DNA of 44,575 bases from an uncultured Pseudomonadota bacterium (GCA_964562335.1 CAZLTI010000001.1:1-44575), one strand, 5' to 3'. Numbered from the stretch's first letter, positions 22,433 through 37,521 are shown. Notes: generated from the letters alone by a model not told the origin. Program-made: numbers and translations.

Positions 22433-22834
22433 ATGGCCGAGCGCCGAAAGGTTTTGGTGGTAGACGACGAACCGACAAACATTGAAATTGTTGTTGAGAT
22501 ACTCGAGGAAAACTACATCCTCAGGGCGGCGGCTTCGGGCGAGGAGGCTCTGCGGGAGGTGTATGCGTTCAGACCCGATATCATGCTGTTGGATATCATG
22601 ATGCCGGGGATCGATGGCTATCGAGTCTGTAGGGCCGTCAAAAGCGACGAAGCGCTAAGAGAGACAAAAATCGTTCTGCTATCGGCAAAGGCCATGGCGG
22701 AAGACATCGAGGCCGGTTTTGCGGCCGGAGCCGACGGCTATTTGACCAAGCCGTTTATGGCCGAAGAACTGAAGGGTCTGTTGGAGAAGCATCTGCATAC
22801 CGGGCGTAGCGTCGATAGAGCGGAGAGCGTCTAA
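22433..22834 (+). CDS. Single-domain response regulator (CheY-like receiver)
   Basis: VLVVDDEP, MLLDIMMPGIDG (phospho-Asp), LSAKA and YLTKPF. No output domain and no adjacent kinase. Confidence 0.85.
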   Translation: MAERRKVLVVDDEPTNIEIVVEILEENYILRAAASGEEALREVYAFRPDIMLLDIMMPGIDGYRVCRAVKSDEALRETKIVLLSAKAMAEDIEAGFAAGADGYLTKPFMAEELKGLLEKHLHTGRSVDRAESV

Positions 22835-23526
22835 CCGTCTCTTCTGATAAAGGCGGTGGAAAGATAGGCCCCGTCGCAAGGGGTTTTTTTCAACAGCAGA
22901 TTGTACACCGCCTCCCCTTCGAGTCCGATTTTCTGCGCCAGATAGGCTGCCTGCGGATGGGACTGCTCGATTGCCTCCATCAGTGTCGGAAGCTTTTTGT
23001 TTACTTTCATAAATACGGTGGTCGGATGGCGCCGTATCAACTTCACCGCCGTCGAAACGTCCTGAGGCATTTCGTACACTCCGAAGTTCTCTCCCTTTAC
23101 GCAGAGCGGCAGACCCAACAAAGCGGACGTTCCGTTCACGGTGTTGATTCCGGGAACGTTTCTGACGAGTACCCCCTTTTCCGCCAGTTTGACGGACAGA
23201 TAGTTGGAGGTGCTGAAAATTGTCGGATCTCCCATTGTGACGAAGGAGACTTTTCCGCCCCGGTCGAGAAGATCCAGAATTCGACCGGCCAGCCGTCCGT
23301 ATTTGCGGTCGAGTTCCCTGCTGTCGTTGTTCATGGGGAAATAGTACATCATCAGCTTCGACTCCTCTACGAAGTTCAATACGATCTCTCTAGCCACGCT
23401 TTTGCCCAAAACGTCGGACTGCGGCGTAACGATAATGTCCGATTCCTCCAGCAGGCGCTTCGCCTTCAGAGTGATCAGCTCCGGATCTCCCGGTCCGAGT
23501 CCGATCGAATGGATGTACTTTTCCAT
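22831..23526 (-). CDS. cobI: Precorrin-2 / cobalt-factor II C20-methyltransferase
   Basis: SIGLGPGDPELITLKA, VTMGDPTIFST and GINTVNG. This is the tetrapyrrole methylase fold at CbiL/CobI length (231 aa). Confidence 0.85.
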   Translation of the reverse strand: MEKYIHSIGLGPGDPELITLKAKRLLEESDIIVTPQSDVLGKSVAREIVLNFVEESKLMMYYFPMNNDSRELDRKYGRLAGRILDLLDRGGKVSFVTMGDPTIFSTSNYLSVKLAEKGVLVRNVPGINTVNGTSALLGLPLCVKGENFGVYEMPQDVSTAVKLIRRHPTTVFMKVNKKLPTLMEAIEQSHPQAAYLAQKIGLEGEAVYNLLLKKTPCDGAYLSTAFIRRDG

Positions 23527-23553
23527 GGATAGTGTATTGTATTCGAATTGATT

Positions 23554-23583
23554 CGGGAAAGGGTTGCGGAACCCTGCTTCCCG
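23554..23583. other. GC-rich imperfect hairpin between btuF-like and cobI (cgggaaagggttgcggaaccctgcttcccg)
   Basis: Arms CGGGAA/TTCCCG and GGGTT/AACCC, read directly. No T-run follows on either strand. Confidence 0.5.
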
Positions 23584-23636
23584 ATTGTATTGGGGAACTT
23601 CCGAAACACTCGATATTTTACCGCATGATAGTCAAT

Positions 23637-24455
23637 CTATTGCTCTTCCTGCCAAAAAATTCGATTCAATTGCACGGCAGCTTCAAATGCATTGATTCCC
23701 GGTCTGGAGAAAAGATACTGGTCGACCGATACGACTCTGCTTTGCAGCGGCCTGAAATAGGATCTGTTTTGCGGATGTTCCGGGTTTTTGTTCATCGGCC
23801 CCTTTTGATAGATATAATACTCCGGCTTCAGATCGATGATTTTTTCCGCCGATACGGGCACATGCTTTTTGTGCGTGGGGATCAGGTTTCTACCTCCGGC
23901 CGCTTCGATGATCGAAGTCATGATGCTGGAACTTCCCGCAACCCGCAGCGGCCTTTCGCTGATTTCGTAGACGACGGTGGGCACCCTCTCTAACTTTCTA
24001 ATCTCCAGCAGCTTTTCCGTTAGCCGCGCGACGATCGTACCGGCGGTTTCGCCGGCATCGAGCAGCTTCCCCAGCTCTTCGACGCTGCGCAACACATCCT
24101 CCAGGCGCAGGGGATCGAATCGGTGGAAGGCGGCTTTGAATTCCCTCTGCAGACTTGCGGGAAAAGCGCGTTCGGAACCGGTGATAATCAAATCGGGTTC
24201 CAAAGCTCTGATCAATTCGATATTCGGCCGCAGATGGGAACCGACTTTTACCGCCTTTTCGAAATTGCGGTCCGTCCGCGTCACACCGACTACGCGGCTT
24301 TTGCTCCCCAGCAGTTTCACGATGTCGCTGGCCGGAGCATATAGCACTACGATTTTGTCGAAGCAGTGGGCGGAAGCCCAAGGGATCGACAGAAAGGCTC
24401 CGACCAACAAAAGCGCTCTTCCTACCGATCCGGAGAGTTTTCTACGAAACCTCAC
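23637..24455 (-). CDS. ABC transporter periplasmic substrate-binding protein, BtuF/FhuD-like (cobalamin or siderophore class)
   Basis: Signal peptide, then IVVLYAPASDIV..LGSKSRVVGVT and PDLIITG, typical of the Peripla_BP_2 fold. Last gene of the BtuCDF-like trio. Confidence 0.8.
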   Translation of the reverse strand: MRFRRKLSGSVGRALLLVGAFLSIPWASAHCFDKIVVLYAPASDIVKLLGSKSRVVGVTRTDRNFEKAVKVGSHLRPNIELIRALEPDLIITGSERAFPASLQREFKAAFHRFDPLRLEDVLRSVEELGKLLDAGETAGTIVARLTEKLLEIRKLERVPTVVYEISERPLRVAGSSSIMTSIIEAAGGRNLIPTHKKHVPVSAEKIIDLKPEYYIYQKGPMNKNPEHPQNRSYFRPLQSRVVSVDQYLFSRPGINAFEAAVQLNRIFWQEEQ

Positions 24456-25215
24456 GACTGCCTCCGTCGGTATACACGAAGATTCCTTTGTCGCTTTTGA
24501 AAAACTGCACCCGAACGCCGAAAATCTCGGACAGCTGTTCCTCCCGCAATTCCTCTTTTTTTTTGTCGTACCTCAGTCTCCCCTTTTCGAAAAAAAGGAA
24601 GCGGCGGAACTCTCTGACGGCAAGCGCGATATCGTGAATCACAACCAATATGACGCGATTTCTGCTCAACTCCCTTAAAATCCGCAACGTTTCCAACTGG
24701 TGTTTGATATCGATGCCGCTCAGCGGTTCGTCCAGCAGTACGACGGGAGCGTCGCGGTTGATCAGGCGCGCCAGCAGCACCCGCTGCTTTTCGCCTCCGG
24801 ACAGTTCGTTGAAGGGACGGTCTCGCAGATGGCCGATATCGAACTTTCCGACGATATGGTCGGTAGCCTCCAGATCGGTTTTGGAGTATCGGTTCCCATC
24901 GGTATGGGGGAACCGCCCGGTCAGCACTACGTAAAAAACGTCGAACGGCATGCTTAGCGCGGTGGCCTGGGGCAGCAGGCCAATTCGACGGTTGCGGGAG
25001 AGGATGTCCACCGTACGAAAGTCCTTTTGTCGAATGCGGTAGAGGCCCGAATACTCCGTCAATCCCGACAGAACCGACAGGAATGTGGATTTCCCGCTTC
25101 CGTTGTTGCCCAGGACGGCCACAAAGTCTCTTTCCGCCAGATCGAGACGGTCCACCTGGAGGCGGAATTCTCCCCGGTCCGCAACGACATCCCGCAGTTC
25201 AATCAAAATAGGCAA
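24442..25215 (-). CDS. ABC transporter ATP-binding protein (BtuD/FepC-like)
   Basis: Walker A GNNGSGKST, signature LSGGEKQR, and Walker B VVLLDEP. Confidence 0.9.
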   Translation of the reverse strand: MPILIELRDVVADRGEFRLQVDRLDLAERDFVAVLGNNGSGKSTFLSVLSGLTEYSGLYRIRQKDFRTVDILSRNRRIGLLPQATALSMPFDVFYVVLTGRFPHTDGNRYSKTDLEATDHIVGKFDIGHLRDRPFNELSGGEKQRVLLARLINRDAPVVLLDEPLSGIDIKHQLETLRILRELSRNRVILVVIHDIALAVREFRRFLFFEKGRLRYDKKKEELREEQLSEIFGVRVQFFKSDKGIFVYTDGGSREVS

Positions 25216-26176
25216 GCTCCCTTTTTCGCTTTGTCAGCAGATAGAGAAAGAAGAGTCCTCCTATGGCGGAGGTGATGATTCCCACCGAAAGCTCCTGCCC
25301 CTCCGGCAGGAGGGTTCGTGCGATCAGATCGTTGCCGATCATGAAAGCGGAGCCGAACAGCATACTCAGAGGAATCAGGTCTTTCGCCTTGACGAATTGC
25401 GCCAGTCGGACGAGATGGGGAACAATCAGTCCTACGAACCCGATGATTCCCGCATAGCCCACGCTGACCGCCGTCAGCAGGGCCGCAAAAAAAAAGGCCT
25501 TGCGTCTCAGTCTGTTCGTATCGATGCCGCTGGATTGGGCGGTGGTATCGTCGAAGCAGATGATGTCGAGACTCAGGCAATCCCTGCGGGTGGATAGATA
25601 GGAAACGGTCAGGACGGCGAAAAGCACCGCCGCTTTTTTCGCCGACGCACCTTGAAATCCCCCCATCAGCCAGAAAATGATGGAAGCTACGGAGTCGTCG
25701 GCCAGATATTTCATCAGGCTGATCACGGAGGAGGCGAAGGTGCTGATCACGATTCCGGCAAGCAGCATGGTGATTGGCTGCACCTTTCCGCCGACGGACG
25801 AAATTTTGTAGACGGCCGCCAGTCCGAGCAGACCGCCGCCAAGGGCGAAGAGCGGCAGTACGGTGCCAAGTCCCAGCATGATGGCGATCACCGCTCCCAT
25901 GGCGGACGAGGCGGATACGCCGGTGGTAAAGGAGTCGGCCAGGGGATTTTTCATTACGTATTGGAACAGAACGCCGGCTAGCGTGAGCGACGCGCCGACC
26001 AATCCCGCCAACAGTATGCGCGGCAAGCGCACGTGGAGCAGAATATCCCTGTCGGTTTCCGACAGGTTCGCGAAATCCATATGGACCGCTCCCTTCAGCA
26101 GGGCCGCGAAAAAAACCGCCAGCAGCAGGCCCGACATCAGAAAAACCGCCGTTTTTTTGTTTTTTCGCATTCTCAT
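25199..26176 (-). CDS. FecCD-family ABC permease (BtuC-like)
   Basis: About 325 aa and polytopic. The C-terminal GIITSAIGGLFFLYLL pattern is typical of FecCD. The ATG at 26176 forms an ATGA overlap with the upstream gene's stop. Confidence 0.88.
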   Translation of the reverse strand: MRMRKNKKTAVFLMSGLLLAVFFAALLKGAVHMDFANLSETDRDILLHVRLPRILLAGLVGASLTLAGVLFQYVMKNPLADSFTTGVSASSAMGAVIAIMLGLGTVLPLFALGGGLLGLAAVYKISSVGGKVQPITMLLAGIVISTFASSVISLMKYLADDSVASIIFWLMGGFQGASAKKAAVLFAVLTVSYLSTRRDCLSLDIICFDDTTAQSSGIDTNRLRRKAFFFAALLTAVSVGYAGIIGFVGLIVPHLVRLAQFVKAKDLIPLSMLFGSAFMIGNDLIARTLLPEGQELSVGIITSAIGGLFFLYLLTKRKRELAYFD

Positions 26177-26943
26177 GCCTCGACCCGTTTGATCGCCCAG
26201 GTGGCAGTGCAGAAAAAAAGGACGGAACATGCCAGCAGAATCACCATGTCGGACAGGTCGACGACACCTCCCGTCAAAGAGGCGCGGATTGCTTTCGTCG
26301 AATAGGTGAGCGGAAGAATGTGGACGATGAGGTTGAAAATCCCCGGAAGCTTGTCGACGGGGAAAAAGGTGCCGCAGAGGAAAATCATCGGCGTTATGAC
26401 AAAGGTGTTGATCTGGGCTTGGCTGCCGTGGTCCCGAATCATCATCGATACCGTGACTGCCAGTGCGGAAAAGAGAAAGCAGTGCAGGGCCATTGCCGGA
26501 ACGAAAAGAGGATGGAACCGCAGGTCCACTCCGAAAAGAAATACGTAGCCGAATATCAGCGCGATGCTGACCAGGCTTTTGAACATGCCGTACAGCGTCT
26601 CCCCTGCGACGATTCCGGCGTATGTTACGGGCGCTATCAGATACTCGTCGAATATGTGAAAATAGAATCGGGCGATATTGAGCTCCTGCGCAATGCCGTA
26701 GCTTTGATTGAGAGTGGCCATGGTGAGCAGGCCGGGAATCAGGAAAACGATGTAGGGCAGTCCGTTTACGGATACCTCGTCGCCGAATCCCCAGCCGAAT
26801 GCGATCAGAAACAGCAAAGGCGATATAGAAGAGGCCAGCACCTGCTTTTTTGCCTTTTTTCGGTAGACGTGGACTTCGCGATACAGGACCGCTTGAATGC
26901 CGTTAAGCATGAATTCTCCTGCCTGTGCGGCTGATGACGACAT
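26173..26943 (-). CDS. ABC-2 type transporter permease
   Basis: 256 aa with six predicted TM segments. Translationally coupled to the upstream ABC ATPase. Confidence 0.8.
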   Translation of the reverse strand: MSSSAAQAGEFMLNGIQAVLYREVHVYRKKAKKQVLASSISPLLFLIAFGWGFGDEVSVNGLPYIVFLIPGLLTMATLNQSYGIAQELNIARFYFHIFDEYLIAPVTYAGIVAGETLYGMFKSLVSIALIFGYVFLFGVDLRFHPLFVPAMALHCFLFSALAVTVSMMIRDHGSQAQINTFVITPMIFLCGTFFPVDKLPGIFNLIVHILPLTYSTKAIRASLTGGVVDLSDMVILLACSVLFFCTATWAIKRVEA

Positions 26944-27829
26944 CCTCCAGCGTCACCTTTCTGACTTTGCACTCCTGCGTCTGATTCGCCAGTGCGTGCA
27001 GCGCCTTTCGTTTCGTTTCGTAGTAGGTTTCCGTAATACCCTCTTCGTGCAGGCTTTCCACGACATACTGTCCAAGCCCCGATTTTAGCCGTTCCGGAGT
27101 GTCGCCGGCAACGATCTCTCCGGCATCGATGATCATCACTCTCCGGCACAGCTTTTCCGCCTCTTCGATATAGTGCGTCGTCAGTAGAATGGCCGTCCCC
27201 CTTTTCTGGTTGACCTTAAGAATCAGGTTCCATAGGCTGCGCCGAATTTGGGCGTCCAGGCCGACCGTCGGTTCGTCCAGAAACAAAATTTCGGGGTCGT
27301 GCAGCAGTGCCCGGACAATCACCAGCCGTCTTTTCATTCCGCCGGAAAAGGTCTTTACCTGTCTGTATGCATATTCGGTCAGTCCGGCAAATTCGAGAGC
27401 CTCCCTTATCTTCGGTTTTCTCTGCCGCTTGGCAATACCATGGAGAAGAGTATGCAGATATAGGTTCTCGTAGGCGGTCAGATCTCTATCCAGGTTGCTG
27501 CTTTGCGGCACTACGCCGATCAGGCTTTTTGCCTGCCGCAGATTTTTTCGGAAGTTCTTGCCGTAGTAGAATATCTGCCCTCCGGTCGGTTTGGTAAGGC
27601 CCACCAGCAACTTGATAATGGTTGTCTTGCCTGCTCCGTTGGAACCGAGCAAACCGACAAACTCTCCCTTCGATACCGCAAAATCTACCGAATTGACGGC
27701 AACCTTCCTTTTGAATTTCTTGCTCAGCCGCACGGCGGAGAGAACGGGGCGTTCGGTGGCTGCGGTTGCGCGAGGTTTTGCGCCTCCGCAGGTTTCGCCT
27801 CTATGATTCGTCCCGATTGTTTCGACCAT
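26903..27829 (-). CDS. ABC transporter ATP-binding protein (ABC-2/DrrA-like)
   Basis: Walker A GSNGAGKTT, signature FSGGMKRR, and Walker B LFLDEPTVGLD. Confidence 0.9.
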   Translation of the reverse strand: MVETIGTNHRGETCGGAKPRATAATERPVLSAVRLSKKFKRKVAVNSVDFAVSKGEFVGLLGSNGAGKTTIIKLLVGLTKPTGGQIFYYGKNFRKNLRQAKSLIGVVPQSSNLDRDLTAYENLYLHTLLHGIAKRQRKPKIREALEFAGLTEYAYRQVKTFSGGMKRRLVIVRALLHDPEILFLDEPTVGLDAQIRRSLWNLILKVNQKRGTAILLTTHYIEEAEKLCRRVMIIDAGEIVAGDTPERLKSGLGQYVVESLHEEGITETYYETKRKALHALANQTQECKVRKVTLEDVVISRTGRRIHA

Positions 27830-28736
27830 TTTTTCGCTCGGCGGGATTGTATCGGGGGACGTCCGAAAGACGGCGAACGACCTCCTGAAGGTTGCCTATC
27901 CAAATGTCCACGTAGCCGTCGTATTCCGCCGTGCCTCGTAAAATTGGGATGCAGCGGACTCCCCGTTTGGTCAGGATCGTCTTCCAGGAATCCTCCGCAT
28001 CGCCTGCCATGTCGTTTATGGCGTGATCCCCGGCTACGGACATGAACGGCATCAGATAGACCCTTTTGATACTCCTTCTTTTCAGCAGTTCGGTTACCAC
28101 GTCGATGTCGGGGAATCCCTCCACTGTGCCTACGATTATATTGGGGTCCCTTAATTGAAGCTGGAACATCAGTGCCGCATAGAAGGCGTTCGAGGGATGG
28201 TGCGTGCCGTGTCCCATCAGCACGACCCCCTCCCCCCTTTTGCGGCCTTTGGGGATGCTGCTTTGTACCGCCTCGACGACCCGTTCCATACTTTGTTGCG
28301 TCGATAGCAGAGGCTGCCCCAAAACGATGGATTGAAATCCGCCGATTATACCGAATGCATCCACCGTTCGGGAAAGATCGTCGAACTCCGCGCCCCGAAT
28401 GGTGTGGAGAGACTGGACCGCCACATGCGTAAACTTCTCGTCCAGCATCTTGGCAAGTGCCGTTTCGGGAGAATCCCGGCGTTTTCCCTGCTTTGCCAGC
28501 TTCCGACGGATCATGTGCGAGGTAAAGGCCCATCGCACGGGAACTTCGGGAAACAGGCGTTTGGTTTTCCTATCGATTCTATCGAACGCCGTTTGTGCCG
28601 ACGCAATGCTGGAACCGAATGCGACCAGCAGAATTCCCACCTTTTTGGGAATCTCCCTTCGATCGTGGTGGGAAGCCGTACAGGGATCCGTAAATACCAA
28701 AACGACGGCAACTGCCAGAATCGGATATCTTGCCAT
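27801..28736 (-). CDS. cbiK: Sirohydrochlorin cobaltochelatase CbiK with N-terminal signal peptide
   Basis: VGILLVAFGSS, VAVQSLHTIRGAEF, VVLMGHGTHH and MSVAGDHAINDMAGD align with the CbiK layout. The N-terminus MARYPILAVAVVLVFTDPCTA looks like a secretion signal. The start is Met94 of the ORF-track ORF. Confidence 0.88.
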   Translation of the reverse strand: MARYPILAVAVVLVFTDPCTASHHDRREIPKKVGILLVAFGSSIASAQTAFDRIDRKTKRLFPEVPVRWAFTSHMIRRKLAKQGKRRDSPETALAKMLDEKFTHVAVQSLHTIRGAEFDDLSRTVDAFGIIGGFQSIVLGQPLLSTQQSMERVVEAVQSSIPKGRKRGEGVVLMGHGTHHPSNAFYAALMFQLQLRDPNIIVGTVEGFPDIDVVTELLKRRSIKRVYLMPFMSVAGDHAINDMAGDAEDSWKTILTKRGVRCIPILRGTAEYDGYVDIWIGNLQEVVRRLSDVPRYNPAERKNGRNNRDES

Positions 28737-28889
28737 TGTCTCTCCGTAGCGGGGCATAAAAGAGATGCACAATTTTAGGAATTGCAAAAAACGGAGCGTT
28801 TTGTGTTGCGGCGGCCTTCCGGTGGGCAATAATCGGCAGAACTGGGGGGTTGGGTTGCCAACGCCATTATCGCCTCCCTCGAGGCTTTC

Positions 28890-29035
28890 GCAATAGACCG
28901 GTATTCCGGCTTGGGGCAACCTACTTGTCCGTCTTCCCAGGCGAGTCCACCCGACCCAGTGACATGGTTGGACGTTCGTTCCCTTCACGGCTGCGGGGCA
29001 GCGGAGGCCTTTCACCTCGCTTCCAGAGTCTATTC
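28890..29035 (-). promoter_or_regulatory. Cobalamin (B12) riboswitch
   Basis: The minus strand reads GGAAGCGAGGTGAAAGGCCTCCGCTGCCCCGCAGCCGTGAAGGGAAC ... GTCACTGGGTCGGGTGGACTCGCCTGGGAAGACGG ... CCCCAAGCCGGAATACCGGTC. These match the GGTGnAAnnCC..CCCGC core, the GCCACTG..GGGAAG element and the B12 box. It lies 160-300 nt upstream of the cbiK ATG. Confidence 0.75.
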
Positions 29036-29245
29036 AACGTTCGTTTCGTGCGAACCGTTGCAGAAGATCACAGAGGACGGAAAAAGTCAATTCTCCAAAA
29101 CGGTTCCGAGCGAGCGGTTTGCCGCTTTGACTGGATCGATTGCGAATAGTAGCTTTGCAGGTAAAAAAGTTGCATCTATCCGAAAGAGCGGCACCGGTCG
29201 GAATAGGGAGTGCGCTTGTTTGGGAGAGGGTTTTTTTGACGGACG

Positions 29246-33912: not shown

Positions 33913-34332
33913 TTATTCCAGCTCCTTGCCTAAGGTTGTCATGGTCAGTGTCCCGTGCTTTACCCCTTTGGTGCCGATGAGCCGGTCGGCAAGCAGTTTG
34001 ATGTCCTTTGCCCTTCCTTTCAAAACTGCCACCTCCAGGCAGTTGGTGCGGTCCAGATGGACATGCAGAACGGACACAATGGAATCGTGGTGCACATGCT
34101 GACGCGCGTTCAATTTGTCGGAAAGCTCCCGCGTACGATGTTCGTATACCAGAGTGACGGTGCCGACGGTCTCCCGCTCTCCGTGTTCCCACTGTTTGTC
34201 TACGAGACTGCTCCTGATCAGATCCCGAATGGCTTCGGATCGGTTGGGGGTTCCTTTTGCGGCTATCAGGCCGTCGAACCTTTCGAGCAGCCTACGGTCG
34301 ATGGAAATTCCGAATCGTGCGGTTTGGGACAT
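33913..34332 (-). CDS. nikR: NikR-family nickel-responsive ribbon-helix-helix regulator
   Basis: [15 protein letters not shown] (RHH), and C-terminal ACT-like domain with [21 protein letters not shown] metal ligands. 139 aa with a GGAGGA RBS. Confidence 0.88.
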
Positions 34333-34373: not shown

Positions 34374-34679
34374 CTATTTGGATCGGATGCTCTGACCGAT
34401 CCTTTTTATTCGGTGTGAGTGAACAAATTTGTTGTACTCTTCGTGAGATCCGATCTAGAACCAGGTCATGGAATCGCTCTGCATCAATCCAAGGGCTCTC
34501 CAATTGCGACGAATGGATACGGAATATATCGGCCTGGTAGGGTGTATTTGCTTGAACCTCAATGCGGGAGCGAAGGGATCTTTTTTCCAAACTTTGTAGG
34601 CGGCTTTTGCCTCTTCTTGGATCGATATCGGCAGCTTTTTAAAACACTTTCGAAATCTTGCGTTCAACAATGATATCAC
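34374..34679 (-). pseudogene. RelE/ParE-superfamily toxin interrupted by an in-frame TAG
   Basis: The translation ...[23 protein letters not shown] stops at TAG (34455-34457). It continues in frame as [11 protein letters not shown]..., and the family's conserved C-terminus reads WFWIGSHxEY. Confidence 0.7.
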
Positions 34680-34984
34680 AACTCATCCCATCCTTTTGCC
34701 TTTAAGGTTCCTTTTTTTCTATCCTCTTCCGCTTCGCTTGCCAGATCTTCCAACACATCGACCGAGTTTGCAAAAGACATTTCCCAATTCTCATCGACCT
34801 TTTCTTGAGACGGATATTCTATTTCCGTTATGTAGAAGTAGGAACTGGGCTCTATAGGCGACATAGCTTCCGAGTGTTTTTGCGTTATGGTTCTCGGCTC
34901 GAAGAACACGGGAGTACGATTCGAATTTTCGTAATCGCGCCAGGTCTTCGGCCCGATTCGTCCGGAGTCATACCGATTTATCAT
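34676..34984 (-). CDS. Putative cognate antitoxin (assigned by position only)
   Basis: Its stop overlaps the toxin start by 4 nt. It has an acidic C-terminal tail, LEDLASEAEEDRKKGTLKAKGWDEL. The true start is uncertain, since internal Met residues exist. Confidence 0.4.
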   Translation of the reverse strand: MINRYDSGRIGPKTWRDYENSNRTPVFFEPRTITQKHSEAMSPIEPSSYFYITEIEYPSQEKVDENWEMSFANSVDVLEDLASEAEEDRKKGTLKAKGWDEL

Positions 34985-35354
34985 ATTCCCAACCGTTAAA
35001 GGTAACTTGGTCGTGTATTCCGTGCTGCACTACGCCTTGAGGATGCTCTATCCTTTGTCTGCTTAAAACCCCTTTTGTACAAAAGTAATGGCTGCCACTT
35101 GCTACACTCTCTATCAGAGCCTGCTTCATTACATATTTTTTCGACTGCGTAGCAGTCAGAATCGAATCGGGTGCATACGGTCGGTGCAATTCGAGTTCCG
35201 ATGCAATATCATCGTAAATGTTCCTATAGAGCTTATACTGCTCCATTGAAGGCATTCCAACTTTCAACCCGAGGCTTCTGGCCTCTCTTCTGAGTATCGT
35301 ATAGTCGTGACTACCCGATTCGCTGCAGAGAAAGTCGAGAATGTGTCGGATATT
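34968..35354 (-). pseudogene. 5'-truncated gene remnant of unknown family
   Basis: The open frame runs from 35354 with no ATG until 35255. The ORF-track 'M' at 35267 is a TTG. The translation NIRHILDFLCSESGSHDYTILRREARSLGLKVGMPSMEQYKLY... looks protein-like but has no recognisable start or RBS. Confidence 0.3.
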
Positions 35355-35661
35355 CTAAAGCGTGCGATTGCCGTCACTATCGGCCGACAGCGTCTGTGCG
35401 CTTGCATGCTGGGATCATTGTATCTTGTTGAATTGGAAGATATGTATGCCGGAAGAAAGCGTCAATGCTTTTTTCTGCCGTTCAAACGGGGATACTCCCT
35501 GTCGACTGAGGATCGATGCGACATTGGGCGTTTCCGGTCGGTCGCGTCCGACGATGGTCGTTGTGCCGTTTACAGGGATCGGAAAATCGGCTATGCAGTG
35601 GGGGTGTCGAAGGATGTTGTGGTCCGTTTTTGTATCGAATCTTTTCGTCGGGGAGTCGACC

Positions 35662-36354
35662 ATGGAATATTCAACGGAAGTGCAAAATATGAGGTGTGTT
35701 GTCAAGGGTCCCAAAAACGGTCCGTCGCCCATCCCGCAGGAGGGCAAATGGGTGCAGGCCAAGGAGGTAGGGGACATATCCGGGCTGACTCACGGTGTAG
35801 GCTGGTGCGCACCGCATCAGGGAGCCTGCAAGCTGACGCTGAACGTCAAGGAGGGCATTATAGAGGAGGCCCTGGTCGAGACCGTGGGCTGCACGGGAAT
35901 GACCCATTCCGCAGCCATGGCCTCCGAAATTCTTCCGGGGAAAACCATTCTGGAGGCGCTGAATTCGGACCTGGTTTGCGATGCCATCAATGTCGCCATG
36001 CGGGAGCTGTTTCAGCAGATCGTCTACGGACGAACGCAAACGGCCTTTTCCGAAGGGGGGCTTCCTATCGGAGCGGGACTGGAGGATTTGGGCAAGGGGC
36101 TGAAAAGTGTGACCGGCACCATGTACGGAACAAGCGCGAAGGGAGCCAGATATTTGGAAATGGCGGAGGGCTACGTGACGAAGATCGGTCTTGACGAGCA
36201 AGGGGAGATCGTTGGCTACTCGTTTGTCCACCTGGGAAAAATGATGGCGGAGATTGCCAAAGGCGAGGATGCGAACGAAGCCTTGAAGAGGGCGTCCGGA
36301 ACTTATGGACAATTTGACGCCGCCGCAAAGGTGATCGATCCCAGACACCAATAG
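35662..36354 (+). CDS. IscU/NifU-N-like Fe-S scaffold domain protein with about 100 aa C-terminal extension
   Basis: The Cys pattern GVGWCAPHQGACKL, VETVGCTGMTHSAAMASE and LVCDAINVAMRE parallels the three IscU cluster ligands. A GGGGAG RBS precedes the ATG at 35662. Confidence 0.8.
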   Translation: MEYSTEVQNMRCVVKGPKNGPSPIPQEGKWVQAKEVGDISGLTHGVGWCAPHQGACKLTLNVKEGIIEEALVETVGCTGMTHSAAMASEILPGKTILEALNSDLVCDAINVAMRELFQQIVYGRTQTAFSEGGLPIGAGLEDLGKGLKSVTGTMYGTSAKGARYLEMAEGYVTKIGLDEQGEIVGYSFVHLGKMMAEIAKGEDANEALKRASGTYGQFDAAAKVIDPRHQ

Positions 36355-36381
36355 TTCACTATCATGCAAAGGAGACCGTAA

Positions 36382-37380
36382 ATGGCTTTATTTGAGGGGT
36401 ACGAGCGAAGAATCGGTCAGATCTCCGCTGTATTGGAGCAGTATGGATTGAAATCGTTGGAGGAGGCGAAAACGGTCTGCAAAAAGCAAGGTGTGGATGT
36501 GGCCGGGATCGTCAGAGAGGTGCAGCCGATCTGTTTCGAGAATGCCTGCTGGGCATATACTCTTGGTGCGGCAATTTCCGTCAAAAAGGGGCAGACCAGG
36601 GCCGTAGACATAGCGGCAACTCTGGGAGAGGGACTGCAGGCGTTTTGCATACCGGGGTCCGTAGCGGACGACCGCAAAGTGGGAATCGGACACGGCAATC
36701 TGGCCTCCATGCTCCTGCGGGAGGAGACCAAGTGCTTTGCCTTCCTGGCTGGTCACGAATCGTTTGCCGCCGCCGAGGGTGCCATCGGTCTGGCCAAATC
36801 GGCCAATCGCGTCAGAAGGGAGCCTCTGAGGGTGATTTTAAACGGACTTGGCAAGGACGCGGCCCATATCATTGCCAGAATCAATGGCTTCACCCATGTA
36901 AAAACTCGGTTCGACTACACATCCGGAAAGATCGAAATTGTCGCGGAAACGGCCTATTCGGAAGGCGAGCGCGCAAAAGTGCGATGCTACGGAGCGGATG
37001 ATGTGCGGGAAGGGGTCGCGATCAACCACCTGGAAGGGGTCGACGTATCGATCACGGGGAATTCGACCAATCCTACGCGGTTTCAGCATCCCGTGGCCGG
37101 CACCTACAAAAAGGAGTGCAACGCACAGGGGAAGAGGTACTTTTCCGTTGCATCCGGCGGAGGAACCGGCAGAACTCTGCATCCGGACAATATGGGAGCG
37201 GGTCCGGCCTCCTACGGCATGACCGATACGATGGGACGAATGCACTCGGACGCGCAGTTCGCCGGCTCCTCCTCCGTTCCGGCGCATGTGGAAATGATGG
37301 GTCTGATCGGAATGGGAAACAATCCTATGGTCGGAGCCTCCGTAGCCGTAGCCGTAGCCCTGCAGCAAGCATGCAGCTAG
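36382..37380 (+). CDS. GGGtGRT-family protein (function unknown)
   Basis: The literal motif SVASGGGTGRTLHPDN is present. About 332 aa, the expected length for this family as I recall it. It lies 27 nt downstream of the IscU-like gene. Confidence 0.85.
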   Translation: MALFEGYERRIGQISAVLEQYGLKSLEEAKTVCKKQGVDVAGIVREVQPICFENACWAYTLGAAISVKKGQTRAVDIAATLGEGLQAFCIPGSVADDRKVGIGHGNLASMLLREETKCFAFLAGHESFAAAEGAIGLAKSANRVRREPLRVILNGLGKDAAHIIARINGFTHVKTRFDYTSGKIEIVAETAYSEGERAKVRCYGADDVREGVAINHLEGVDVSITGNSTNPTRFQHPVAGTYKKECNAQGKRYFSVASGGGTGRTLHPDNMGAGPASYGMTDTMGRMHSDAQFAGSSSVPAHVEMMGLIGMGNNPMVGASVAVAVALQQACS

Positions 37381-37521
37381 CGGCAGGAGCGGTTTTGCCT
37401 GCTTTGCGGAAATCCGTCGGGCAGCGGGAGGAGTTGCGCTGTCGATGAACCGGCAATGCTATTGCCTGTTTCGGGATGTTTCCCACGGGAAACCCCATCA
37501 TTCGCATTTACCGGACGGGAA

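Follow-up and report, generated by a model that had tools for sequence, protein, structure and literature searches.

What do the two proteins encoded side by side at 35662..37380 of this locus do? The locus belongs to a 44,575-nt stretch of DNA from an uncultured Pseudomonadota bacterium (GCA_964562335.1, CAZLTI010000001.1:1-44575), called here in its whole length the window, and consists of a gene for a NifU/IscU-like protein (gene A) and, directly downstream, a gene for a protein of the GGGtGRT family (gene B). An earlier note, made from the bare sequence, had read the two genes as a module without known function that might depend on or mature a metallocluster, and had pointed to nearby nickel and cobalt genes and to a long, possibly regulatory leader. 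We find that 35662..37380 is an ordinary copy of a strongly conserved pair from oxygen-avoiding microbes, and we tentatively place the role of the pair at the phosphoglycerate/phosphoenolpyruvate (PEP)/pyruvate node, a placement that is possible but falls somewhat short of probable. That the two proteins form a complex, bind metal and phosphate and play this metabolic role is in each case inferred. The family has no assigned function, as the earlier note had stated: literature mining on GGGtGRT proteins returned no functional assignment, and their function was still explicitly called unclear in 2025 (PMC12078515).

A conserved two-gene pair of anaerobes

Gene B matches the Pfam GGGtGRT family (PF14057) from end to end, with a score of 640.9 bits (E 4.4e-193, profile positions 1-327 of 327) against a gathering score of 27 bits. 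The motif that gives the family its name is present literally at residues 259-265, just after S258. Its residues G259, G260, G261, G263 and T265 are invariant in an alignment of 74 sequences, and the entire motif is invariant in alignments of 24 and 20 sequences that include the divergent clade described below. Across the 74 sequences, which come from more than 10 phyla, 138 of the 332 positions of gene B do not vary. The description of gene B as a carrier of the literal motif that maps to no characterized enzyme is borne out, since homology searches came back empty. NCBIfam holds no model for the protein, and neither sequence nor profile searches found a relative in the Protein Data Bank (PDB). 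A phmmer search of 1.84 billion representatives returned only members of the same family or noise, as did a Pfam search with four sub-domains of gene B at E up to 10. Many public entries annotated as long GGGtGRT proteins (390-517 aa) looked at first like domain fusions, and we rejected them as such, because they proved to be assembly chimeras, frameshifts or an internal duplication; the artefactual representatives (P0241, P0242, P0251, P0278, P0301 and P0309) include chimeras with unrelated N-termini, a read-through product and an internal duplication, and entries of this kind in public protein clusters are easily mistaken for fusions.

The start of gene A was set at the ATG at 35662 because nearly all relatives are 230 aa long and share the same M-x-Y/F-S N-terminus. 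The protein is given as 246 aa in the public record, a call that takes in 35614..35661 and is probably too long, and the listed open reading frame (ORF) reaches 330 aa from a GTG at 35362. Members of the gene A family are 230 aa long and 64-100% identical.

Two independent samples of loci were compared with the window: 80 loci (L001-L080) from one-genome-per-species contigs, and 80 metagenome loci among the matches listed, all of the main clade. A gene A homologue of 230 aa lies directly upstream of gene B on the same strand in all 78 testable genome loci and in all 79 testable metagenome loci, and a reverse look-up from three NifU-like proteins met a GGGtGRT gene next door each time. The tight coupling proposed in the earlier note thus extends to 157 of 157 testable main-clade loci and to every locus of the divergent clade. 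The two genes of the window are separated by exactly 27 nt of unstructured spacer, and the corresponding spacers measure 6-50 nt in nearly all relatives (median ~21 nt). We consider it very probable that the two proteins form an obligate pair or complex. The genes would be co-transcribed as a self-contained two-gene operon, and their products would be the two subunits of one cytoplasmic, iron-dependent complex found in anaerobic bacteria and some methanogens. Long antisense ORFs cover the pair (35671..36369 and 36838..37368, both on the minus strand) and cluster across 20 relatives; they do so because the sense strand is so conserved, and they are a trap for naive gene callers.

Among 74 full-length pairs, identity ranges from 71 to 99.7% for gene B (median 80.7%) and from 63.5 to 100% for gene A (median 76.5%). 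The exhaustive search of the 1.84 billion representatives, which are clustered at 50% identity, resolves GGGtGRT proteins into what is in effect one cluster plus fragments. The pair is conserved at or above the level expected of translation factors. It occurs in Desulfobacterota, Myxococcota, Acidobacteriota, Fibrobacterota, Bacillota (Clostridia, Erysipelotrichales), Bacteroidota, Spirochaetota, Planctomycetota, Verrucomicrobiota/Lentisphaerae, Actinomycetota (Eggerthellaceae) and the archaeon Methanobrevibacter, so that its carriers include Bacteroides, Prevotella-type bacteria, Clostridia, Akkermansia, sulfate reducers and rumen methanogens. The Methanobrevibacter copies of both genes (L073 and L078) are nearest to Clostridia copies, at 84-86% identity, which would fit a transfer of both genes together from gut Firmicutes to rumen and gut methanogens.

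The main clade has no conserved third gene: a search among ~740 flanking ORFs of the 80 genome loci yielded only antisense ORFs, ABC ATPases and response regulators, and 175 different Pfam families are represented among the 121 genes next to the pair. Phage-integrase-family genes are the commonest immediate neighbours (6 of 121), and DtxR-type iron-dependent repressors flank the pair twice.

Predicted folds and the four cysteines of gene A

Profile and model comparisons support an IscU fold for residues ~40-120 of gene A, which would make the protein a remote relative of IscU and NifU. Its score against the Pfam NifU_N model (PF01592) is 22.6 bits, just over the cut-off of 22, for residues 55-102 and positions 37-88 of the 127-position profile, and most of its relatives have no precomputed NifU_N match. 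Against the NCBIfam IscU, NifU and SufU equivalogs (TIGR01999, TIGR03419 and TIGR01994) it scores 16-29 bits, far below the cut-offs of 92-273. A profile of the gene A family finds IscU/NifU structures in the PDB at E 6e-5, and the AlphaFold2 model (predicted local distance difference test score, pLDDT, 54) is matched by Foldseek to ISCU/IscU with probability 1.0 and E 4e-4. A further region of about 108 aa (residues ~123-230) follows this core throughout the family, in agreement with the extra C-terminal domain noticed earlier. A weak resemblance of that region to the C-terminal domain of lipoate-protein ligase was set aside as untrustworthy, since the model is too poor.

The earlier note had also credited gene A with the three-cysteine ligand pattern of IscU, which is only partly upheld. 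C77 aligns with IscU C63, and C106 is a plausible counterpart of IscU C106, but HMMER leaves it unaligned; the IscU C37 column is occupied by Q53, which lies between the invariant residues C49 and C56. C49, C56, C77 and C106 are invariant in the family and are retained in the divergent partner protein, which is 50% identical. Gene A has no equivalent of the labile Asp39 (the residues read C49-A-P and C56-K-L) and no LPPVK co-chaperone motif. The Gln in the C37 column, the missing Asp39 and LPPVK and the fourth Cys would together favour a stable cluster over a transferable one.

Two known IscU-fold systems are useful for comparison. With the IscU/NifU scaffolds (E. coli IscU, Archaeoglobus fulgidus IscU, PDB 4eb5, and human ISCU) gene A shares the alpha+beta fold over residues ~40-120, the C63-column Cys and probably C106. 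It differs from them in the flanking of the C37 column by C49 and C56, in the other departures and sub-cut-off scores just given, in a shorter core with the 108-aa linker and C-terminal domain added, and in the lack of a desulfurase partner. It can also be likened to SufU from B. subtilis (PDB 5xt5/6jzv), an IscU-fold protein with a tightly Cys-bound metal (Zn) and a dedicated partner. Unlike in SufU, the partner of gene A is not a SufS-type desulfurase, the match reaches only E 0.04-0.3 and no suf genes lie nearby.

Because the cysteines of gene A are conserved and those of gene B are not conserved family-wide, any cluster or metal centre belongs to subunit A. We think it fairly probable that this is a permanent Cys4 metal centre rather than the site of a scaffold: the four invariant Cys of the IscU-fold subunit would hold an Fe-S (or other metal) centre for good, with no transient assembly. 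Dependence of the pair on iron or on Fe-S is plausible, given these four cysteines and the drop in expression of the Bacteroides thetaiotaomicron (B. theta) pair when iron is depleted, described below.

The AlphaFold2 model of gene B is of moderate quality (pLDDT 71, predicted template-modelling score 0.75). It has a helical domain at residues 1-112, a Rossmann-like alpha/beta domain at 118-258 and a confident C-terminal helix. The His/Asp/Met-rich segment 257-313, reading SGGGTGRTLHPDN...SYGMTDT.GRMHSD.QFAGSSSVPAHVEMMG, is modelled with a pLDDT of ~30 though it is the most conserved part of the protein. Foldseek of the model against the PDB gave only generic Rossmann-like matches (best E 0.035, template-modelling score ~0.2). 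Four strands are followed by Gly-rich, near-invariant loops, GHES, GLGKDAA, TGNSTNP and SGGGTGRT, an arrangement typical of parallel sheets that bind a phosphate or nucleotide at their C-terminal edge; the loops at the C-terminal ends of the strands of the Rossmann-like domain of subunit B would form a phosphate- or nucleotide-binding active site. Segment 123-170 of gene A is, like 257-313 of gene B, conserved yet unmodelled when the protein is taken alone, which would fit an intertwined heteromer or a site wrapped round a cofactor; both segments are probably ordered only in the complex or round a cofactor.

Several more specific relationships of gene B were considered and rejected. Kinship with the tubulin/FtsZ GGGTG[ST]G-loop proteins had a probability of 0.1% in hhalign against FtsZ, and kinship with SIS phosphosugar-binding proteins 0.6% against GmhA, from a local match of 13 columns; Pfam gave neither tubulin/FtsZ nor SIS matches at E up to 10. 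A flavodoxin-like TGxT phosphate loop and a GxGxxA...D dinucleotide fingerprint at residues 151-178 are resemblances only, and the Asp of the latter varies in the divergent clade.

Glycolytic neighbours and a proposed role of the pair

The placement at the phosphoglycerate node comes in the first instance from gene neighbourhoods. The central glycolytic operon of Firmicutes runs gapA-pgk-tpiA-gpmI-eno. In three main-clade loci pgk-tpi-gpmI precedes the pair on the same strand, which puts the pair at or close to the position that eno normally takes: L043 reads gap-pgk-tpi-gpmI, one or two small genes, then A-B; L074, whose record begins within pgk, reads pgk-tpi-gpmI-(x)-A-B; and in L162 pgk-tpi-gpmI is followed, after ~65 nt that hold neither a terminator nor a promoter consensus, by A-B. 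Neither A nor B shows homology to enolase or another glycolytic enzyme, and eno itself adjoins the pair in three other loci (L007, L009 and L179). In L143, pgk-tpi lies 3 kb upstream of the pair, in L057 and L092/L101 pyk is found within 6 kb, and in L044 a His_Phos_1 gene stands directly downstream. Over the 160 loci, five glycolysis queries gave 13 non-self matches against 2 for seven control housekeeping genes (MurJ, FtsK, LepB, IspH, TopA, ArgH and Asd), and glycolysis genes accompany the main-clade pair about 8-fold more often than control genes; a rough Poisson estimate that ignores the kinship of the loci gives p ~2e-4 for 9 loci. We also considered whether the pair itself could be a divergent glycolytic enzyme and rejected this, as hhalign assigned probabilities of at most 1% each to PGK, TIM, GpmI, ApgM, His_Phos_1, enolase and pyruvate kinase. 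The glycolysis link is one of synteny only, not of homology.

A second line of evidence comes from the one truly divergent branch of GGGtGRT proteins (P0271 and P0395-P0411), which are 62-79% identical to P0271 and ~50% identical to the protein of the window. This clade retains the NifU-like partner gene, with overlapping reading frames, and differs from the main clade in that its pair belongs to a conserved operon. In L086, L089-L091 and L094 the operon begins with a helix-turn-helix (HTH) regulator, an ApgM-type cofactor-independent phosphoglycerate mutase, the NifU-like gene and the GGGtGRT gene, and continues with a membrane-anchored protein of 317-332 aa and a His_Phos_1 mutase/phosphatase; the HTH regulator is not seen in L094, whose record begins just upstream of ApgM. 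The ApgM of L089 scores 517 bits against NCBIfam NF003104 (cut-off 489). In L096 and L097 a GpmI-type mutase directly follows the membrane-protein gene, and L096 also has His_Phos_1, ApgM and HTH regulator genes on the opposite strand, in a region before which the shorter L097 record stops. In L098 a HAD phosphatase stands between ApgM and the pair. A gene of a phosphoglycerate-mutase family (ApgM, GpmI and/or His_Phos_1) is thus part of the operon in six of the six divergent contexts that are long enough.

The membrane-anchored protein carries two membrane helices at its N-terminus, and its cytosolic domain contains motifs such as GALQADD and RNLFGFxCVE. It is confined to this clade, its members are 44-59% identical to one another, and it has no match in Pfam, NCBIfam or PADLOC; a reading of the operon as a defence system was dropped, as PADLOC found no match. 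In L086 and L089-L091 the operon is flanked by IS66 and mutator-type transposases, an SSB-like gene, YodL and small unassigned genes, which suggests that the divergent-clade operons are carried on a mobile element.

Diverse anaerobes of the gut and rumen are reported to express GGGtGRT and 'NifU' proteins at high levels (PMC11204068, PMC7035244). In B. theta the genes BT0173-BT0174 resemble the pair of the window in that the two families adjoin, the proteins are 332 and 230 aa long and identity to Bacteroidota members is ~77-83%; only the flanks differ (nikR, a toxin-antitoxin remnant and an EamA gene in the window), and flanks are not conserved. Expression of BT0173-BT0174 drops 11- to 13-fold under iron depletion (PMC10434189). 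In a B. theta screen for release of the regulator Cur from its inhibition by glucose, transposon insertions fell in only three loci, namely pfkA, the mdpA peptidase locus and BT0173-4; the mdpA peptidase acts via pyruvate kinase abundance, and the BT0173-4 transposon mutants have a 2-fold effect on Cur and no growth defect (bioRxiv 10.64898/2026.04.10.717545). The glycolysis-gene neighbours agree with this phenotype, the sole genetic one published for the pair.

On these grounds we propose that the complex would act on or at the 3-phosphoglycerate/2-phosphoglycerate/PEP node, in glycolysis and gluconeogenesis, and that the pair would be an abundant, dispensable, iron-requiring enzyme that is shut off in iron scarcity. 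Its abundance, its dispensability in rich conditions and its repression under iron limitation would fit an iron-requiring isozyme that stands beside an iron-independent classical enzyme. More specific versions of the proposal carry less conviction. That the pair is a new-fold, Fe-S-dependent enzyme of lower glycolysis and gluconeogenesis, for example a 2-phosphoglycerate dehydratase or another phosphoglycerate converter that runs parallel to the Mg/Mn enzymes and is off when iron is scarce, is doubtful, and that it is specifically an isozyme of enolase or phosphoglycerate mutase is unlikely. Two-subunit, oxygen-sensitive Fe-S hydro-lyases of anaerobes, such as the alpha/beta forms of L-serine dehydratase and of class I fumarase, offer a functional analogy only: they too have two small co-translated subunits, iron-dependent expression, iron-independent alternatives and high abundance in anaerobes, and their chemistry would suit a 2-substituted 3-hydroxy acid such as 2-phosphoglycerate. 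Searches by sequence and by fold found no likeness to them, and their three Cys ligands contrast with the four invariant Cys here. By this analogy an Fe-S-type dehydration of 2-phosphoglycerate would be a chemically attractive guess, though an unlikely one.

Several points weigh against the placement of the pair at this node. Glycolysis genes adjoin the pair in 9 of 160 loci, some of them kin, which leaves ~6 independent events against ~2 expected (p ~0.01), and most loci, that of the window included, show no glycolysis gene beside the pair. Organisms that bear the pair also have ordinary enolase and phosphoglycerate mutases, so that no pathway hole demands it. The Cur phenotype of BT0173-4 is only 2-fold. 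The operons of the divergent clade lie near transposases and other mobile-element-like genes and could serve a specialised function. Metal binding and the A-B complex rest on inference; the statements based on folds are weak, because the models are moderate (B, pLDDT 71) and poor (A, pLDDT 54), and the four Cys of gene A could equally be ligands of a structural zinc, in the manner of SufU.

The main rival reading, which is rather doubtful, makes the pair a dedicated Fe-S assembly, carrier or storage system suited to sulfide-rich anaerobic life, with gene A as a true scaffold and the GGGtGRT protein as an accessory, for example one that donates iron or sulfide or that releases clusters in a nucleotide-dependent manner. 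The IscU fold and conserved Cys of gene A speak for it, as do the label 'iron-sulfur cluster assembly scaffold' that NCBI and JGI attach to the protein, the iron-responsive expression of the pair and, in the rumen, the co-variation of GGGtGRT with cysteine synthase and O-acetylhomoserine thiol-lyase (PMC7035244). It would have to accommodate the equivalog scores far below cut-off and the altered ligand set of gene A, both detailed above. It would also have to explain an identity of ~80% across phyla and a very high abundance, which are unusual for an assembly factor, and it leaves the recurrent glycolysis and phosphoglycerate-mutase neighbours unexplained. A cysteine desulfurase (IscS, NifS or SufS) is not recurrent near the pair, aminotransferase class V being absent from the recurrent families of the 121 flanking genes, and neither desulfurase nor chaperone nor A-type carrier is a conserved neighbour in the 160 loci. 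The cluster-maturing role that the earlier note had offered as one option thus finds no counterpart among the conserved neighbours.

A sensor or regulatory complex, in which an Fe-S or redox-sensitive centre on A adjusts glycolytic flux, or the level of a signalling metabolite, to the prevailing iron or redox state, is improbable. Such a complex would account for the altered output of Cur, a global regulator, in transposon mutants that have no growth defect, for the iron response of the B. theta pair and for the HTH regulator and membrane-anchored protein in the divergent-clade operons. Very high protein abundance in many species is atypical of a regulator, however, no DNA-binding, kinase or other signalling domain was found in A or B, and the conserved Gly-rich loops of B resemble a ligand-binding catalytic site.

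It is quite improbable that the pair is an oxidative-stress or iron-buffering system of anaerobes, co-regulated with rubrerythrin-type defences and serving the protection or repair of Fe-S enzymes or the storage of iron. GGGtGRT proteins are expressed together with rubrerythrins in chicken-gut anaerobes (PMC11204068), and in Clostridium pasteurianum they are more abundant with iron, alongside rubrerythrin (PMC5395762). The restriction of the pair to anaerobes and the two DtxR-type repressors among the 121 flanking genes point the same way. Against this, A and B have no ferritin-like, rubredoxin or peroxidase domains, the 121 flanking genes show no synteny with oxidative-stress genes, and the phosphoglycerate-mutase operons are not explained.

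Upstream stretch, neighbouring genes and significance

The coordinates of the features discussed here are collected in Table 1.

Table 1. Features of the window and of related loci, with strand and basis or remark
Feature	Position	Strand	Basis or remark
Gene A, NifU/IscU-fold protein, 230 aa	35662..36354	+	NifU_N, PDB profile, Foldseek
Gene A layout			IscU-like core ~40-122; Gly-rich linker 123-170; alpha/beta domain 171-227
Gene B, GGGtGRT protein, 332 aa	36382..37380	+	PF14057 match
Gene B layout			N-terminal helical domain; Rossmann-like alpha/beta domain; 257-313 segment; C-terminal helix
Shine-Dalgarno GGGGAG of gene A, 6 nt 5' of ATG	35650..35655	+	sequence reading
Shine-Dalgarno AAGGAG of gene B, inside the 27-nt spacer	36369..36374	+	sequence reading
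Weak hairpin then UUUG, just 3' of gene B stop	37382..37399	+	7-bp stem with G-U pairs
Non-coding upstream stretch kept in sister strains	35388..35661	+	near-identical in same-species contigs L083-L085
Stable 11-bp hairpin in upstream stretch, not a canonical terminator	35450..35477	+	local z = -3.08
nikR	33913..34332	-	confirmed
ParE-like toxin	34455..34679	-	
102-aa gene overlapping toxin gene	34676..34984	-	
99-aa ORF	34968..35267	-	
Cobalamin riboswitch	28879..29073	-	Rfam RF00174, 71.9 bits
ABC-transporter/tetrapyrrole methylase operon behind riboswitch	22831..28533	-	
tRNA gene upstream of pair, L015	4770..4853	-	
tRNA gene upstream of pair, L067	4346..4426	-	
tRNA gene upstream of pair, L072	4351..4429	-	
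tRNA gene upstream of pair, L182	4608..4691	-	
tRNA gene upstream of pair, L183	4610..4693	-	
Divergent-clade membrane protein, L086	6992..7972		directly 3' of GGGtGRT
Divergent-clade membrane protein, L089	8005..8958		directly 3' of GGGtGRT
Divergent-clade membrane protein, L094	3808..4770		directly 3' of GGGtGRT
Divergent-clade membrane protein, L096	2067..3065		directly 3' of GGGtGRT

The 394 nt upstream of gene A (35268..35661) hold no credible ORF, just as the earlier note had it; the ORFs listed for it extend the N-terminus in frame, overlap out of frame or run antisense. The promoter and 5' untranslated region of the pair, and perhaps an operator as well, presumably lie in the part that sister strains retain. 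In the same-species contigs L083 and L085 a deletion removes 35227..35387 (161 nt), so that the 5' third of the leader is dispensable, and the nearest different relative (L081/L082, 92% protein identity) shares only ~45 nt round the ribosome-binding site and start codon. Nor is the length of the leader remarkable. A long upstream spacer was considered as a family trait and rejected, given that spacers in relatives have a median of ~184 nt and that 23% of them are at least 394 nt long. Clostridium-type loci have a minus-strand tRNA gene in their long upstream spacer, which explains the length without a leader RNA.

Simple scans of the plus strand of the upstream stretch found no sigma-70-like promoter or terminator consensus. 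The weak hairpin and T-run that the earlier note placed at 35455..35474 is a real hairpin, although it spans 28 nt (Table 1) and the T-run forms the 3' arm of the stem and is not a tail behind it. The fold of 35440..35490 has a minimum free energy of -16.7 kcal/mol and none of 200 shuffled sequences was equally stable; L081/L082 lend the hairpin no comparative support. The suggestion of a regulatory RNA in the leader is not supported: the 278-nt leader core folds no better than expected (z = -1.84), Rfam gave no match at gathering or permissive thresholds (best permissive E 9.7), and conservation stops at the ~45 nt shared with L081, too little for covariation to be measured. Upstream of the pair in 12 relatives Rfam found opposite-strand tRNA genes only. 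A pairing of 35494-35505 with 35645-35656 that would mask the Shine-Dalgarno sequence is possible and was discarded as lacking comparative support, and repeats and palindromes in the leader are short matches at chance level. At the other end of the pair, the hairpin behind gene B might be a terminator but does not convince as one: z is -0.75 for the fold of 37378..37460, and a terminator scan reports nothing there.

Between nikR and the pair lies a toxin-antitoxin-like cassette (the ParE-like toxin, the 102-aa gene and the 99-aa ORF of Table 1) that varies among sister strains. Contigs L083 and L085 have a 1-nt insertion in the toxin region in addition to the 161-nt deletion, and the cassette is decaying, because the deletion takes away the start of the 99-aa ORF. 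The operon behind the cobalamin riboswitch encodes two ABC ATPases, an ABC-2 permease, a FecCD permease, a periplasmic binding protein and a tetrapyrrole methylase. The GC content at third codon positions of the pair equals that of the neighbouring genes, so the pair is not a recent import.

A nickel- or cobalt-linked metallocluster maturation under NikR, with a regulatory RNA or operator in the 394-nt leader, as the neighbouring genes had suggested to the earlier note, is hardly credible and is largely refuted by comparative data: nikR does lie 1.3 kb upstream, on the other strand, the window does contain a cobalamin riboswitch and a corrin methylase and the leader does form a stable hairpin, but none of the 80 related loci has a homologue of NikR (or of the downstream EamA protein), the decaying cassette separates nikR from the pair, the corrin/cobalt genes, at least 6.6 kb upstream, make up an operon of their own on the minus strand, and the leader, partly deleted in sister strains, lacks both an Rfam match and conservation across species.

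The instance in the window is not new, because the NifU adjacency is visible in the published B. theta annotation and the family has already been catalogued; the window adds one more ordinary copy to it. What the comparison changes is the direction of the search for a function: the nickel/cobalt and leader-RNA leads are removed, and a testable link to lower glycolysis is put in their place. The GGGtGRT family is broad, highly conserved and abundant in gut and rumen proteomes, and no homologue of known function or structure was found for it, which puts the pair among the clearest 'known unknowns' in the biology of anaerobes. If the proposed role is true, the central carbon metabolism of anaerobes would hold an undescribed iron-dependent step or isozyme, and this would be relevant to the physiology of gut microbes under host iron restriction.

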